Counted from the stretch's first letter, positions 1-5,313 are shown. The stretch is 64,000 nt of DNA from Planctomycetota bacterium (GCA_965223545.1 OZ245006.1:1760001-1824000); one strand, 5' to 3'. The notes: generated from the sequence alone by a model not told the origin. Program-made: numbers and translations.

Positions 1-805
1 CGTCGGTGCGCGTATCCACGGCGGCGGAACCCGCCTGCTCCGGGCTGGTGTAGTAGGGCGTGCCGACGAAGGCGCCGTCGATCGTCAGACTGGCACGCCC
101 GCCATCGTCGTACAGGGCCTTGGCCAAGCCGAAGTCGATGATGACCGGCTGCGGCGGGTCACGGTCGTCGACGACGAGGATGTTCGTCGGTTTGAGGTCG
201 CGGTGCACGACACCTCTCTGGTGTGCGTGCGCCACGCCCGCGCACACGTCACAGAACAGCCGCAGCCGCTCGGAGACGCCGAGCCGGTGCTCGTCGCAGT
301 AACTCGTCAAGGGCGAGCCGCGAACTAACTCCATGACGAGGTAGGGGCGCCCGTCACCGGTCGTGCCGGCGTCGAGCATCGATGCAATCGAAGGATGCTG
401 CATGCGGGCCAAGGCCTGCTGCTCCATCGCGAAGCGCGCCACCGAACGCGGATCGCTGCACCGAACCTGGAGGACCTTGATCGCCACCTCCCGCTCCACC
501 GGCTGGCTCTGCCGCGCGCGATAGACGGCCCCGAACCCACCCCGGCCGAGCTCGTCCAGCACTGCGTAGGCATCGATGTCTGGCGGCGGACACGGGTCGG
601 CAAACGCCGCCACCAGCTCTTCTCCCTGCGCCAGTCTCGCCGCGAGCGACAGGATCCGCTCCCGGTGATCGGGGTGACGATCCAGAAGCTGCTCGACCGC
701 AACCGTGCGCTGGTCCGCCGGCGATCCGTACCAGGCCTCGTAGCACGCATTCTCGACCGGCTCGGGCAGGCCCTGCGGATGCCCTGGTCCGTCGTGGCTG
801 GACAT
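1..805 (-). CDS. Ser/Thr protein kinase, N-terminal part (runs off window start)
   Basis: Manual translation from ATG at 805: MSSHDG...LGRGGFGAVY...VAIKVL...HRDLKPTNILV...DFGLAK...GTPYYTSPEQ; absent from the ORF track because it has no stop in the window. Confidence 0.92.
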   Translation of the reverse strand, partial: MSSHDGPGHPQGLPEPVENACYEAWYGSPADQRTVAVEQLLDRHPDHRERILSLAARLAQGEELVAAFADPCPPPDIDAYAVLDELGRGGFGAVYRARQSQPVEREVAIKVLQVRCSDPRSVARFAMEQQALARMQHPSIASMLDAGTTGDGRPYLVMELVRGSPLTSYCDEHRLGVSERLRLFCDVCAGVAHAHQRGVVHRDLKPTNILVVDDRDPPQPVIIDFGLAKALYDDGGRASLTIDGAFVGTPYYTSPEQAGSAAVDTRTD

Positions 806-902
806 GCGGCTCCATTATGCCCTGCGTGCGGGGTTGCGGGCACGTTCCGCCGGTTTGAGGCGGCAGTGGCGCAGAGCGCGCTCACGTGCCAATCTTGGAG
901 TC

Positions 903-1622
903 GTGGCCGAGAGGAACCGGCAGGCTCTGGCAGAGCGCGTCGCACGCGCGGCAACGACCGCCCTCGAATCACAGGGCTCCGTCACCGCGATCGACGTGAT
1001 GCTCGGTCTTCGGTGGCTCAGCCCGAGCTGTCTCGTCGAATGGCGCACACGGCGACTGCCAGCCCTGCAGCACGCCATCCAGACCGACCCGAAACGGGTG
1101 CGCTTGGCGCTGCGGTTGTTTCGGGAATGGGCCCAACAAGCCGAGCTCGAGCCCGCGGAGGCCGACTACGTCGCCCGCACGCCAAACCGCGAGCGCTTGC
1201 AGTTCTCGCTGTCGGGCGCCGCCGCGCTGGAGGCTGCATGGCGGACCCAGTGGATTTCGCCCAGGCTCTCGACAGCCCAGCGCGGGCGGGTGCGAGCGAA
1301 TGCACAGAAGCCGCCGGAGTTGGTGGTCGTCATGGCGCTGCACCCCGACTGGGAATGCCATCACTGCGGTGGCAGCGGCGCGCTCCTGGTCATGGAGCCG
1401 CCCGGCCCAGCCTGCCTTCCCTGCGTCGGTCTCGATCACCTCGAGCTGCTGCCAGCTGGCGACGCGCTACTGACGCGCCGCGCCCGTGCCGCTAGCAAAC
1501 AGACCGCCGTCGTGGTGCGCTGGAGCAAGGCGCGCAAGCGCAACGAACGTGTCGGTTGCTTGGTCGAGCACGAGGCCCTCGCATCGGCGCGCGCGCGCAT
1601 CGAGCGCGAGTCGGCCCAGTGA
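903..1622 (+). CDS. Conserved hypothetical protein with CxxC...CxxC motif (resembles N-terminal part of DUF2293 proteins)
   Basis: GTG after GGAG; CHHCGG...CLPC followed by LPAGDALLTRRA...VVRWSKARKRNERVGCLVE. Confidence 0.7.
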   Translation: MAERNRQALAERVARAATTALESQGSVTAIDVMLGLRWLSPSCLVEWRTRRLPALQHAIQTDPKRVRLALRLFREWAQQAELEPAEADYVARTPNRERLQFSLSGAAALEAAWRTQWISPRLSTAQRGRVRANAQKPPELVVVMALHPDWECHHCGGSGALLVMEPPGPACLPCVGLDHLELLPAGDALLTRRARAASKQTAVVVRWSKARKRNERVGCLVEHEALASARARIERESAQ

Positions 1623-1653
1623 CGCGTCGTGATTCGCGGAGGGCCGGCGCCGT

Positions 1654-2226
1654 CTAGAAGACCAGCGAGTCGTCGCGCCGGACTCCATCACACGCGATCT
1701 CGAGAACCGCGAGCGCCTCGGCGATCTCTGCCGGCTCGGGCACCGCGCTTCCGCGCTTGATGTGCACGATGGTCTCCGCTCCGAAGAAGACATCCTGAAC
1801 ACTGGCGAAGCTCTTCATGAAAGCCGCACGGGCCTTCTTGGCGCTGGCCGCTCAAAGGGGCTTCGGCGTGCCGGCGACGAACGCCGCCAAAGGCCGCACG
1901 ATCTCGCGCCGTTCGAAGTGCCCGAACTTCAAGCCCTGCTCCTCCAGCGCGCTCCTCGCATCGTCTTCGGAGAGCGTCGCGCCCTCGTCGAGCACGAGGG
2001 TCGCGCGCACCCCACTCATCATCAACCGGTCGACTCCATCGAGACTTTCCATGGCCGCACGGGCCTTGGCGGTGGCGCCTCAACCGCCGCCGTCCGCCTC
2101 CACGATGTGCACGACGAGCTTTGGTCCGGGGGCCGAACCCTCGCGCACCGACGTCAGGATGGAAGTGTCACCGCACGCCGCGACGCCCAGAGCGGTGGCG
2201 AGCAGGATGGAGCTGTGAGTCTGCAT
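1654..2226 (-). CDS. Putative double-selenocysteine lipoprotein with two HMA-like repeats (190 aa; UGA at codons 49 and 125)
   Basis: ORFs 2080-2322 and 1852-2052 plus the downstream frame to TAG at 1654 are one frame broken only by TGA at 2080-2082 and 1852-1854; lipobox VAAC; both TGAs followed by AAGGCCCGTGCGGC hairpin. Confidence 0.78.
1819..1837 (-). promoter_or_regulatory. SECIS-like hairpin after second UGA
   Basis: mRNA GAAGGCC-CGUGC-GGCUUUC, 7-bp stem with one G-U pair; loop begins after a 21-nt spacer from UGA; G at loop position 2. Confidence 0.7.
2049..2069 (-). promoter_or_regulatory. SECIS-like hairpin after first UGA
   Basis: mRNA CCAAGGCC-CGUGC-GGCCAUGG with one A.A mismatch; same loop; 18-nt spacer from UGA. 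Confidence 0.7.
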
Positions 2227-2234
2227 GTCTCGCC

Positions 2235-2265
2235 AGATGTCGGCGAGCGGGCGGGCGATTGCAGA
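2235..2265 (-). promoter_or_regulatory. Putative ECF promoter for the selenoprotein gene (TCTGCAAT-N16-GACATCT)
   Basis: Minus strand TCTGCAAT cgcccgcccgctcgcc GACATCT, ending 8 nt before the ATG at 2226. Confidence 0.7.
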
Positions 2266-2293
2266 TCTCGAGAAATCCGAGGATCTCCCGGTT

Positions 2294-2324
2294 TCTGCAA
2301 TGTGGGAGCGCGGCCCTGACATCT
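2294..2324 (+). promoter_or_regulatory. Putative autoregulatory ECF promoter (TCTGCAAT-N16-GACATCT)
   Basis: TCTGCAAT gtgggagcgcggccct GACATCT, ending 16 nt before the sigma ATG; boxes and spacer length identical to the divergent copy. Confidence 0.7.
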
Positions 2325-2340
2325 ACGTCTGGCATCGCGG

Positions 2341-2917
2341 ATGTCCGACCACCCCGCGCAGACCCTGGACCTGGACGAGTTTGCCGCACGCTTCCAGCGC
2401 GCGGCACCGGCGCTGTGGTGCGTCGCGGCAGGGGTCCTCGGTTCGCCCGATGCCGCCGAGGACGTCGTGCAGGAAGCGGCGCTGCACGCGATGGCCAAGT
2501 TGCCGACATTCCGCGCGGACAGCGATTTCACCGCTTGGATGGCGCAGTTCGTCCGCTTCACGGCCCTCAACCAAGTGCGTCGCGTGGACCGCGAACCCAA
2601 ATCCCTCGGATCCAACCTGCCGGAGCCGGTCGCACCCAGAGCAACGTCCCCCCTCGTGTCGGAGGTCGGGGACATCCTGCCGGAGCAGACGGACCTCGAC
2701 GATCACGTGCTGCACGGGCTCAACGCCTTGCACGAGACACAACGCACGTGCCTTCTGTTGCGCACCCGTGCTCGATCTCCCCTACCGCGAGATCGGCGAG
2801 ATGCTCGACATGCCCGAAGGCACGGCGATGAGTCACGTGCACCGCGCGCGGCAGCAGCTCGTCGATCAGCTGAGGGGTGCAGCCGCGACGACCACCGAGG
2901 CGAGGAAGGCCCAATGA
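2341..2917 (+). pseudogene. ECF sigma-70 factor with a 1-nt insertion frameshift at 2765-2767 (real lesion or sequencing error)
   Basis: Region 2 (AAEDVVQEA...FTAWM) is in the frame of 2341; region 4 (VLDLPYREIGEMLDMPEGTAMSHVHRAR) is in another frame; removing one C from ACCCGTG restores RTVLDLPY. Confidence 0.88.
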
Positions 2918-3609
2918 ACCAAAGGGATCGGCACGACCTCCAACGCTGGCTCGACGGCACTTTCGAGGCCGAAGAACGCGCCGCCTTCGAGCGACGCATC
3001 GACGAGGACCCCGAACTTCGAGCCGAGCTGCAGGTGCACGAGCAGGTTGGCGAGTCGATCCGGCGCAGCCATTCGGTACCGGAGATCAACGCCCCAGCGC
3101 CGGCAGCGCCGGCAGCGCCACCGCGATGGCCGTTCTTCGTGGCGGGCGCGGCCAGTGCCGCCGCAGTCCTGCTCGTCTGGCTGCAGCCGTGGGCCAACCG
3201 CACCGAGCTGATGCGCATGGCGGTGGGTCGCAGTTGGCTCGCGGTCTGCGAACAACCCGACCCTCGCCCCGCCGAGCCCGCCTGCGCGTCCCCAGGCCAG
3301 GTCCCACAGTACGTCCAACCGCTCGCCCCCGAGCTCCCGTCCCCGCTGGTGTGGCGCGACGCCGAGGGCGTGCGCTTCGAGCGGGGCCTCGAGCCGCGCC
3401 CGCCGAACGGCCTGCGGGTACTCGCGCTTTCGGTGCTTCCGCAGACCGACGTGTTCTTGTTCGTCGTGCCCGCGGCCACCGACCCACGACCGGCGCTTCC
3501 GCCGGACACCGACTGGAACCTGTTCCGCAAGACCTGTGGCGCACTGGTGGTCTACGAGCTCACACCGCTCGAGAAGCCGCACGGCTTGCAGTGTTTGGCC
3601 GCGGGATGA
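2914..3609 (+). CDS. Transmembrane anti-sigma factor
   Basis: ATGA overlap with the sigma stop; LQRWLDGTFEAEERAAFERRIDEDPELRAEL anti-sigma-like N-terminus; one TM helix; extracytoplasmic domain with 4 Cys. Confidence 0.85.
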   Translation: MNQRDRHDLQRWLDGTFEAEERAAFERRIDEDPELRAELQVHEQVGESIRRSHSVPEINAPAPAAPAAPPRWPFFVAGAASAAAVLLVWLQPWANRTELMRMAVGRSWLAVCEQPDPRPAEPACASPGQVPQYVQPLAPELPSPLVWRDAEGVRFERGLEPRPPNGLRVLALSVLPQTDVFLFVVPAATDPRPALPPDTDWNLFRKTCGALVVYELTPLEKPHGLQCLAAG

Positions 3610-3667
3610 CCGCAGTCTCTGCCGACGCGCTACCGCCACTGCGGGCCGCCGATGTTACGCTTTCGTC

Positions 3668-4045
3668 ATGGCAGCGAAGAAGCGCGCGGCAAAGAAGACG
3701 CCGGCCAAGAAGGCCGCGAAGACCAGGACTCCCGACCGCATGACCACGGCCGAGCGCTTCGTCACCGGGCAGCACACGAAAGAGGATCTCGAGCCCGTTG
3801 CCGTGAAGTGCCCCGAGTGCGGACACAGGGGATTTCAGGCTGCCAAGGGTCGATTCGGGCCGGTCTGGCGCTGCCTGAACCGGCCGGCCTGCAAGCACTT
3901 CTTCGACGCGCGCCCGACCGGCAAGAAGTGCGGTTATGTGGTCAGGGGAAAGAAGTGTGGCGCCTTGATGGTCGAGGGAACGAAGACGATTCCCGACCGT
4001 TGCTCGCTGCGGTCGTGCCCCAATCGCAATCCACACCGGCTGTAG
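3668..4045 (+). CDS. Stand-alone topoisomerase-type C4 zinc-ribbon protein with Lys/Ala-rich N-terminus
   Basis: AAKKRAAKKTPAKKAAK; CPECG...GRFGPVWRCLNRPACKH; second KCG...CGALM...CSLRSC. Confidence 0.75.
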   Translation: MAAKKRAAKKTPAKKAAKTRTPDRMTTAERFVTGQHTKEDLEPVAVKCPECGHRGFQAAKGRFGPVWRCLNRPACKHFFDARPTGKKCGYVVRGKKCGALMVEGTKTIPDRCSLRSCPNRNPHRL

Positions 4046-4055
4046 TGGGTCCTCC

Positions 4056-5313
4056 GGCAACAAACTGCAGCCCTTCCGTGGGCCTGGCTAGCTGAGAGAC
4101 GCTGACCGAGACGTAACCGGAGCCCTCTTCCGAGTCACTGGAAGTGACGCAGGGCCAACTGCGCAAACGGTGCCCTTTTGGTCCCCCCCCGCGTTGTGTC
4201 CCGGAGGTCGCCGATGTTCGTTCCCCCGCGTTGCCCCAACTCAGCTTGCCCACACAACCGCAGCCCGCGGCCCGGCTTCTTCGTACGCCGTGGCTACTAC
4301 TACCCCAAGTGCCGCGCCCAAGGCGTGCCGCGCTTCCGCTGCCGCCATTGCCGGCAGGGCTTCTCGCGGCAGACGTTCCGCATGGATTACCGCGACCACA
4401 AGCCCGACCGCAACGCCTGGATCGTCATGTTGCTCTGCTCTGGCCTGGGCCTGCGACAGACCGCACGCCTGGCCGGGCTCACGGCGCGCAACACCGAGAT
4501 GAAGTTCCGCAAGATCGGTCGTCACGTCCGCCGCCTGAACAACAACTTACGGGGCGACCTCCCGGTCGGCTCGAGCTTGCAGTTCGACGAACTCGAGAGC
4601 TACGAGGGCCGCCGCAACACGCGGCCCCTGACGCTGCCTGTCCTGATCGAGCGCGGGAGCCGCTTCATCCTCGCAGCGCGGTCGGCCCCGATCCGCCCCG
4701 GTGGCCCCAAACCGGCTGCGCGCCGGCGAGCTATAGAGGCCGACGCGCGGCGGTTTGGCCGGCGGCCGTCGCGGTCGCGCGCGGCAACGCGCAATGCGCT
4801 GTGCCGGGGCGCGCGCGCTTGCACTCGGTTGACCACCGTGTTGCTCGAAACGGACGAGAAAACGACCTACTCAGGACTCGCGAGGGGCATTTTCGGCGCG
4901 CGGCTCGAGCACCAGCGAACACCAAGCACGCTGCCGCGCGAGACCTGGAATCCGCTGTTCGCGATCAACCATACCGAGGCAATGGCGCGCGACCTCAACG
5001 GTCGTCTGCGGCGCGAGTCCTGGCTGGTCAGCAAGAAGCGCTGTTTCCTCAACCTGCAGCTGCACATCTACACCGCGTACCGCAACTTCACGCGACCGCG
5101 CTTCAACTTCGACCGAGACACGCCGGCGATGCTGGTTGGCTGGCTGCCCCAGAAGTTGCGGCTGAACCAGGTGCTATCCTGGCGCCAGGACTGGGGCACG
5201 CGCAGCGGCCATCCGCTGGATCGAAACGCAAAACCGATCGAGAACTTCCTGAAGAGCTCTGCCTGACTTTCTTGCGGCCGTGCCGGACCACGGAAGGGCT
5301 GCAGTTCACAACC
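4056..5313 (+). mobile_element. IS1/IS1595-like insertion sequence, about 1.26 kb
   Basis: Terminal inverted repeats GG-N5-AACTGCAGCCCTTCCGTGG (19-bp perfect core at 4063-4081 and 5288-5306) enclosing one transposase-like ORF; no target duplication seen. Confidence 0.75.
4214..5266 (+). CDS. IS1-family-like transposase (Zn finger, HTH, catalytic domain)
   Basis: GGAGG RBS; CPNSAC...RFRCRHC; GLGLRQTARLAG HTH; QFDELE, ETDEK, INHTEAMARD...RLRR; TPAMLVG. Confidence 0.8.
   Translation: MFVPPRCPNSACPHNRSPRPGFFVRRGYYYPKCRAQGVPRFRCRHCRQGFSRQTFRMDYRDHKPDRNAWIVMLLCSGLGLRQTARLAGLTARNTEMKFRKIGRHVRRLNNNLRGDLPVGSSLQFDELESYEGRRNTRPLTLPVLIERGSRFILAARSAPIRPGGPKPAARRRAIEADARRFGRRPSRSRAATRNALCRGARACTRLTTVLLETDEKTTYSGLARGIFGARLEHQRTPSTLPRETWNPLFAINHTEAMARDLNGRLRRESWLVSKKRCFLNLQLHIYTAYRNFTRPRFNFDRDTPAMLVGWLPQKLRLNQVLSWRQDWGTRSGHPLDRNAKPIENFLKSSA

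Follow-up and report, generated by a model that had tools for sequence, protein, structure and literature searches.

Can an exported selenoprotein be placed under the command of a dedicated stress sigma factor, and what kind of stress would such a circuit answer? The question is raised by three genes at 1654..3609 of a 64,000-nucleotide (nt) stretch of DNA, hereafter the window, from a Planctomycetota bacterium (GCA_965223545.1 OZ245006.1:1760001-1824000) whose genome comprises 8.1 Mb in 2 contigs. A sequence-only reading had described them as an extracytoplasmic function (ECF) sigma factor, a Cys-rich anti-sigma factor, and a divergent lipoprotein with selenocysteine (Sec, U) in a heavy-metal-associated (HMA) domain. 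Our analysis confirms the divergent arrangement, with the lipoprotein gene at 1654-2226 on the minus strand and, on the plus strand, sigma from 2341 and anti-sigma at 2914-3609; the 114-nt gap between the lipoprotein and sigma genes holds both predicted promoters. We lean toward reading the locus as a soft-metal envelope-stress circuit in which Cys124 of the anti-sigma factor would sense, the sigma factor would induce itself and the lipoprotein, and two selenolates would sequester the metal; the circuit appears intact in relatives and is probably silent in this strain.

The lipoprotein gene and its selenocysteine signals are the following.
1654..2226, minus strand: lipoprotein gene, 190 amino acids, two HMA-fold domains with one Sec each (GGG-U49-GAT and KPL-U125-AAS); an open frame when TGA is read as U
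2173..2226, minus strand: signal peptide and lipobox (Cys18), predicted by reading the sequence
2080..2082, minus strand: TGA for Sec49, an invariant column in alignment A1, with the TGA kept in homologues
1852..1854, minus strand: TGA for Sec125, kept as a second TGA in most strong homologues
2051..2067, minus strand: first SECIS-like hairpin, 18 nt past the UGA, with the loop CGUGC (folding, codon bias, covariation)
1819..1837, minus strand: second SECIS-like hairpin, 21 nt past the UGA, with the loop CGUGC (folding, codon bias, covariation)

That this protein is a selenoprotein with Sec at positions 49 and 125 is strongly supported. A tRNA-Sec was found in the genome, and SelA, SelB, and SelD each score above their model cut-offs. 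With a seven-sequence profile, matches to the family were obtained in 127 of the 339 class genomes (E value ≤0.001, own genome counted), including a few weak matches without TGA that are probably ordinary HMA domains, and in 33 of 251 genomes sampled across the phylum (E value ≤1e-6); most strong matches in both scans have two TGAs. A lipobox-like motif is present in 26 of 27 chosen close homologues with two Sec residues. In 114 TGA contexts, picked by filter from 70 fetched loci, the Arg codon lying 7 to 9 codons past the TGA is CGT in 101 cases, compared with 38 of 325 other Arg codons in the same genes, and this biased codon forms the start of the hairpin loop. Covariation was scored in 76 of 85 distinct sequence windows, nine having been removed for a mis-picked register or TGA; 94.9% of the cells are paired, five of the six pairs show two-sided changes, and the pairing score exceeds all 500 shuffles as well as every slid control. 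Both hairpins fit the bacterial selenocysteine insertion sequence (SECIS) consensus of a G within the first two loop positions at 16 to 37 nt from the UGA (PMC13188914), as their G is second in the loop and their distances are 18 and 21 nt.

The conserved TGAs, the covarying hairpins, and the Sec machinery thus uphold the earlier selenoprotein proposal. The contrary view is that the TGAs are true stops in a pseudogene or split gene and that no selenoprotein is made. It could draw on the fact that the window protein falls below the Pfam HMA and NF041115 thresholds, but it is exceedingly improbable: the two codon positions are identical in dozens of genomes with coding conserved on either side, and the covarying hairpins occur beside complete Sec machinery. 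The Sec position corresponds to the first Cys of distant HMA domains, and none of 73 close database homologues has a Cys at this position within its first 80 residues. All 17 database homologues inspected begin downstream of the TGA, and a single-protein database search with the lipoprotein returned one chimeric match only, because homologues are annotated in pieces; judged from these sequences, public databases cut genes of this family at TGA.

Several other Sec-HMA proteins were observed beside these forms. One subfamily (L038, L047, L048, L056, and similar) has one Sec, three HMA-like domains, and two conserved Cys, and its members appear in databases as truncated "hypothetical protein" or "copper chaperone" entries. 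A phylum-level homologue (L220) has two adjacent TGA codons in its second loop. L228, from its position 1330 (G000:C1 ~6555500-6556250, plus strand), encodes a lipoprotein with three TGAs, in which a U-x-x-U HMA domain is followed by a thioredoxin-like U-x-x-C domain; it is convergent with a MerT/MerP-like gene bearing a CxxC HMA domain. L233 encodes, near its position 1518 (G000:C1 ~6727800, plus strand), a small lipoprotein whose only HMA domain is of the U-x-x-C type.

The AlphaFold2 model of the lipoprotein (predicted local distance difference test [pLDDT] 87) consists of two ferredoxin-like domains. Its top Foldseek match is the CopA tandem HMA region, and the first 12 rows of a wide structural search are all HMA domains, with Z scores of 7.8 to 8.6 and root mean square deviations (RMSD) of 1.9 to 3.1 over 63 to 75 residues; CCS, Atx1/CopZ, and Ccc2 domains are among the structural matches. 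At the level of sequence profiles, the window protein gave no match to Pfam PF00403, which is matched by five of seven aligned family members (E value ≤1; best, 5.2e-8). The locus is likewise absent among the NF041115 (UxxU, 95-bit threshold) matches at E values ≤10, and one homologue matches this family at an E value of 0.0015. The CxxC two-ligand loop is missing, the corresponding loops being U-G-A-T and U-A-A-S; two homologues (L122 and L151) retain U-x-x-C or U-x-x-x-C loops. Of the proposed Sec-HMA lipoprotein, the fold and the Sec are supported, but neither Sec is followed by a second cysteine: as modeled, the lipoprotein has the HMA fold and not the HMA site.

Two predicted promoters and a repeat lie between the divergent genes.
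2236..2263, minus strand: ECF promoter predicted for the selenoprotein gene (–35 TGCAAT, –10 GACATC), 9 nt before the ATG; found by position weight matrix (PWM) and kept in G015 and L154
2296..2323, plus strand: ECF promoter of the sigma/anti-sigma operon, predicted to be autoregulatory; found by PWM, with the same motif at an equal distance in G015, G028, G030, and L154
2258..2301, no strand: imperfect inverted repeat with 21-nt arms (76%) joining the back-to-back –35 elements

The shared motif noticed earlier, TGCA-N18-GACATC, was recovered at 2236-2263 (minus strand) and 2296-2323 (plus strand). These are the two copies in the 64-kb window, where 0.15 is expected, and none of 100 shuffles has at least two. 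The group-wide operon motif, [CG]TGCA[CA]G-N16-GACAT, precedes the operon at 44 sites, and a PWM trained on these sites, none from the source genome and two from G015, was used to scan the genome. The sigma promoter ranks first (25.7 bits), followed by a remnant copy of that promoter (24.7 bits) and, third, the lipoprotein promoter (18.6 bits); the fourth site (17.3 bits) has no plausible gene behind it. The plain pattern TGCA-N18-GACATC shows no enrichment across the genome (8 copies against 22.5 expected), so that only PWM rank and position are informative. Because the divergent copies rank first and third, the lipoprotein gene is most likely a target of this ECF sigma factor, and the predicted regulon in the source genome comprises the sigma operon and the lipoprotein gene, in keeping with a self-contained circuit. 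The inverted repeat would fit a duplication of the promoter in inverted orientation. The remnant second copy of the locus lies outside the window (G000:C1:4627349-4627650) and has a near-identical promoter and the first 57 sigma codons joined to the anti-sigma tail, with an unrelated open reading frame (ORF) behind.

Gene neighborhoods agree with this assignment. The whole module, with three genes and both promoters, is also found in G015 and in the metagenome locus L154 (one of 27 loci of a metagenome scan in which many loci are short), so the proposed check, that orthologous sigma/anti-sigma pairs should adjoin a two-TGA HMA gene, came out in favor of the earlier reading. The window, G015, and L154 fall into one sigma clade (support 99/89), whereas in the sister pairs G028, G030, and G009 the Sec-HMA gene does not adjoin; by this phylogeny, the cis arrangement is one lineage-restricted event, not a widespread system. 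Where the genome carries this anti-sigma factor, 6 of 26 Sec-HMA loci have the promoter motif in front of the gene, compared with 0 of 44 where it does not (lipobox forms alone, 6 of 9 versus 0 of 27), counts whose independence is overstated since the genomes are kin; a looser pattern adds G156, a genome without an anti-sigma match. This link of the motif to anti-sigma-bearing genomes, together with promoter rank, favors the lipoprotein as the output, which had been one of the two roles suggested for it. Four of the six motif-preceded Sec-HMA loci have no sigma gene nearby, and trans control thus seems older than physical linkage.

The partners of the sigma group elsewhere point to the signal. 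The sigma gene is present in 49 of the 51 anti-sigma loci that were analyzed; by one rule, 31 of these 49 encode an exported peptide with 9 to 28 Cys directly upstream of it, and 3 carry the Sec-HMA gene. The Cys-rich exported peptides sit behind the motif of the sigma group, and the anti-sigma factors paired with them bear extra ectodomain Cys. These metallothionein-like peptides under a shared promoter suggest soft-metal envelope stress as the signal. They form a family with CC-P repeats that heads the ECF operon (L019:556-828, L020:577-846, L027:2631-2852, and ~30 similar loci), of which 7 members tested gave no NCBIfam match; in the source genome, a crude rule yielded 31 candidates, none with a signal peptide and CC-P by eye. 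A HemN-like radical SAM gene lies 3' of the anti-sigma gene in G028 and G009 (L181:4871-6334; L084 from ~2230, oriented), with its own promoter copy in G009; the source genome holds distant matches to it only.

The presumed sensor is encoded by the last gene of the operon.
2914..3609, plus strand: anti-sigma factor, 231 amino acids, with an N-terminal domain (~1-53), one membrane helix, and an ectodomain (~95-231); ATGA overlap with the sigma stop
3283..3285, plus strand: codon of Cys124, the only family-wide ectodomain cysteine, invariant in alignments A2 and A8

NCBIfam anti-sigma models matched this protein below cut-off. Its AlphaFold2 model (pLDDT 85.5) has an N terminus resembling RsiW (Z score 6.5, a modest likeness at an RMSD of 6.0 over 67 aligned residues), MucA (4.8), and RseA (4.6), and an ectodomain weakly like the C-terminal domain of RseB/MucB (Z scores 6.2 to 6.4). 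An N-terminal helical domain, one membrane helix, and a gene at position +1 assign it to class I of the anti-sigma factors. With the anti-sigma profile, matches were obtained in 68 of 339 class genomes and to 1,068 cluster representatives; a first scan of genome contigs with the anti-sigma factor as query gave no matches, and a phylum search with a distant profile, which returned mostly generic N-terminal anti-sigma domains, was left out of the counts. All four cysteines noted earlier (AVCEQ, PACAS, KTCGA, LQCLA) do lie in the ectodomain, but only C124 is conserved family-wide. It is kept in 146 of 150 homologues, and in 48 of 107 distant ones the ectodomain holds this Cys alone; C208 and C112 are shared by hardly any homologue, and the anti-sigma-type protein P0022 of L154 retains all four. 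A four-Cys sensor was accordingly rejected; the metal-stress idea draws independent support from the metallothionein-like peptides that related loci encode behind this promoter.

The sigma gene is where the window copy departs from its relatives.
2341..2917, plus strand: ECF sigma gene with a +1 frameshift between regions 2 and 4 (Sigma70_r2 E value 3.9e-12 in the first frame, Sigma70_r4_2 E value 1.2e-8 in the second)
2765..2767, plus strand: CCC run with one extra base compared with orthologues (DNA alignment with G015, G030, and G028)

Owing to the extra C, region 4 is read in another frame than region 2, which the ATGA overlap joins to the anti-sigma factor; the open frame at 2341-3609 accordingly reads as a 422-residue fusion of sigma region 2 and anti-sigma without region 4. 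Orthologues are continuous over 189 to 191 residues. The ECF architecture, with regions 2 and 4 but not region 3 on one polypeptide, is absent from the window copy and present in the G015 orthologue (TIGR02937, 71.2 bits; cut-off, 42.9). That the sigma gene is not intact had escaped the sequence-only reading. With region 4 removed, the sigma copy of this strain is probably inactive, and no second sigma factor of this group was found in the genome (next best, 80 bits versus 195); the circuit is thus probably silent in this strain, whereas G015 and L154 would have it intact. A programmed frameshift was rejected as an explanation, given that there is no slippery site and the orthologues are continuous.

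The frameshift is likely real. In runs X3 and X4, contigs cover 1600-3700 with 0 differences and 0 gaps relative to the window (word depth, 32.5 and 9.4), whereas runs X5 and X6 miss the site. A sequencing or assembly error, which would leave the circuit live in this strain whatever its signal, is unlikely. It would suit a homopolymer site in a two-contig assembly and the intact state of both promoters, the anti-sigma gene, and both SECIS elements. An EF-Tu gene with Ala at the P-loop Asp position (L003, G000:C1:889915-891150, minus strand) also hints at occasional errors, this Asp being normally invariant. Against an error stand the identical base in contigs from two samples at the above depths, the ECF-like ORFs of the genome, 131 of 138 of which are whole with this gene as the only adjacent split pair, and the deleted second copy of the locus, which shows turnover of the system in the lineage. 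Weighing the other way, both runs belong to one study and may themselves underlie the assembly, and a systematic error is possible given the unrecorded library type.

Read from sequence, the mechanism would run as follows. An autoregulated pair of ECF sigma and class I membrane anti-sigma would have captured an exported selenoprotein as its one local target. The sigma factor is predicted to recognize TGCA(A/C)-N17-GACAT before its own operon and before the lipoprotein gene, and a periplasmic thiophilic metal (Cu+, Ag+, Hg2+, or similar) may act on the anti-sigma ectodomain via Cys124, freeing the sigma factor. SelB, as is strongly supported, would read both UGAs through the SECIS hairpins. The product would be a membrane-anchored two-HMA protein with a single selenolate per domain replacing the first Cys of the CxxC loop; these selenolates, singly or paired across two domains or molecules, may capture soft metals in the envelope, and the response would depend on selenium supply. 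In sister clades, metal capture would fall to the exported metallothionein-like peptide that this promoter drives there.

Several observations weigh against this soft-metal reading, besides the kinship of the genomes and the two G015 sites in the PWM training set. Cys occurs within four residues after Sec in only 5 of the 114 contexts, and with the second HMA Cys missing, the usual two-ligand site is impossible inside one domain. The promoter is lacking at 64 of the 70 Sec-HMA loci, and 15 of the 49 sigma loci have neither partner by rule, two of these 15 showing Cys-rich peptides by eye. The motif also precedes a radical SAM gene (G009) and a vWA-like gene (G170), and such other genes behind it indicate that the group is not purely metal-linked. 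Among the listed ORFs of the window, G015, and L154, there is no adjacent metal pump or mer/cop gene. The same facts could be read as a thiol or oxidative stress circuit, in which Cys124 would serve as a redox switch, and the domains, with one Sec each, would scavenge periplasmic peroxide or disulfides on an HMA scaffold. A lone invariant ectodomain Cys suits redox sensing, a single Sec without a second ligand resembles redox selenoproteins, and ECF16 members answer heavy-metal or oxidative stress via periplasmic Cys (PMC7826278). We nevertheless regard this as unlikely, given that the fold is HMA, not thioredoxin, that there is no resolving Cys and no reductant or Dsb partner nearby, and that the dominant partner of the group is a CC-rich peptide resembling a metal sponge.

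Two further readings concern the place of the lipoprotein. As a co-sensor of the RseB/CnrX type, it would bind the ectodomain or pass metal to Cys124, and sensing itself would need selenium; the shared compartment, the adjacency of the genes in three sequences, the few Cys of the anti-sigma factor in this clade, and metal transfer between proteins by HMA domains, a general property of these domains, all speak for it. This role, the other one suggested earlier, fares poorly and is distinctly improbable: the gene is missing beside most anti-sigma genes, including those of the closest sisters (G028, G030, and G009), most members of the lipoprotein family occur without this sigma/anti-sigma pair, and the lipoprotein would be transcribed separately from a target-type promoter. 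Highly doubtful, too, is a delivery chaperone (e.g., of copper to envelope enzymes) with an ECF factor answering metal shortage or cofactor demand. The CCS, Atx1/CopZ, and Ccc2 matches fit a chaperone, and the abundance of the family without this sigma factor suggests a housekeeping role, but a client gene is linked in none of the three module loci, and the metallothionein-like outputs of sister clades fit sequestration. A broader version of the soft-metal circuit, to which we give little credence, would see an undescribed Planctomycetota ECF group that senses soft metals via one invariant periplasmic Cys and whose output is exchangeable, being a sulfur-based metallothionein-like peptide in most lineages and the selenium-based tandem-HMA lipoprotein in others; in these others, the single-selenolate domains would also relay metal to the anti-sigma factor, making both sensing and protection selenium-dependent.

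Three other ORFs flank the module. One at 804-1622 (plus strand, 272 amino acids, two CxxC motifs) is convergent with the lipoprotein gene and gave no Pfam or NCBIfam match. A small ORF at 3668-4045 (plus strand) has a Lys/Ala-rich N terminus and topoisomerase-type zinc-ribbon motifs, with weak matches only. An IS1-like transposase gene at 4178-5266 (plus strand; NF033558 E value 4.9e-7, below cut-off) lies 570 nt downstream of the module.

If the soft-metal circuit is correct, a selenoprotein stands under a dedicated stress sigma factor, and a defined promoter and a defined sensor residue serve two interchangeable outputs, a Cys peptide or a Sec protein, which makes the benefit of Sec in metal binding directly testable. 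The locus also exposes a large exported selenoprotein family, cut at TGA in public databases, and HMA domains that keep one ligand only, selenium. Our literature searches, made at the level of result listings and with BSepDB and the Haft family papers outside their coverage, turned up no selenoprotein under an ECF/anti-sigma pair.

Among described systems, SigF-NrsF (ECF16) with its bufferins, which protects Caulobacter against copper (PMC11626156), shares an ECF factor, a membrane anti-sigma factor that has Cys in the periplasm, and a sigma-controlled output that is exported and binds metal through Cys (PMC11626156, PMC7826278). NrsF, however, is of the DUF1109 type with six helices and two Cys, the promoter is GTAACC-CGTA, and bufferins need MNIO/DUF2063 modification; here, the anti-sigma factor is of class I with one helix and one invariant Cys, no match to DUF1109 was found in 13 members, the promoter is TGCA-N18-GACAT, and either a selenoprotein or a CC-rich peptide that looks unmodified is the output. 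CnrYXH/ECF291 and ECF281/ECF290 (former ECF20) likewise combine a heavy-metal-linked ECF factor, a membrane anti-sigma factor, and a third envelope protein (PMC7826278). Unlike in these systems, there is no CnrX-like heavy-metal resistance protein at +2 and no efflux operon among the neighbors in the window, G015, and L154, and the third gene is divergent, HMA-fold, and Sec-bearing. ECF218 (s28/s33/s41) has a predicted promoter of TGCAAG (–35) and CGACA (–10) and a one-helix anti-sigma factor at +1, and the likeness rests on this promoter resemblance and the anti-sigma description; the portion of the source used describes the group as Actinobacteria only, without a metal or selenoprotein link (PMC7826278).

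HMA-type selenoproteins already known are the UxxU family NF041115, P-type ATPases with UxxC (TIGR01525), MerT-type proteins with C/SxxU (PF02411), and the MerT/CopZ fusion NF045683 (PMC13188914), and among the 119 families in Table 1 of that paper, a tandem single-Sec HMA lipoprotein has no entry. Like the lipoprotein, they have an HMA fold whose metal loop contains Sec; unlike them, it has tandem domains with one Sec each, no second Cys or Sec, a lipid anchor, and scores below the family cut-offs. With MerP, CopZ, and Atx1, it has in common the fold and the position of the first metal ligand, and, like MerP, it is predicted to be exported. Chaperones of this type stand under MerR, CueR, or CsoR control, whereas the lipoprotein described here has Sec for the first Cys, has lost the second Cys, carries its domains in tandem, and is most likely under ECF control.

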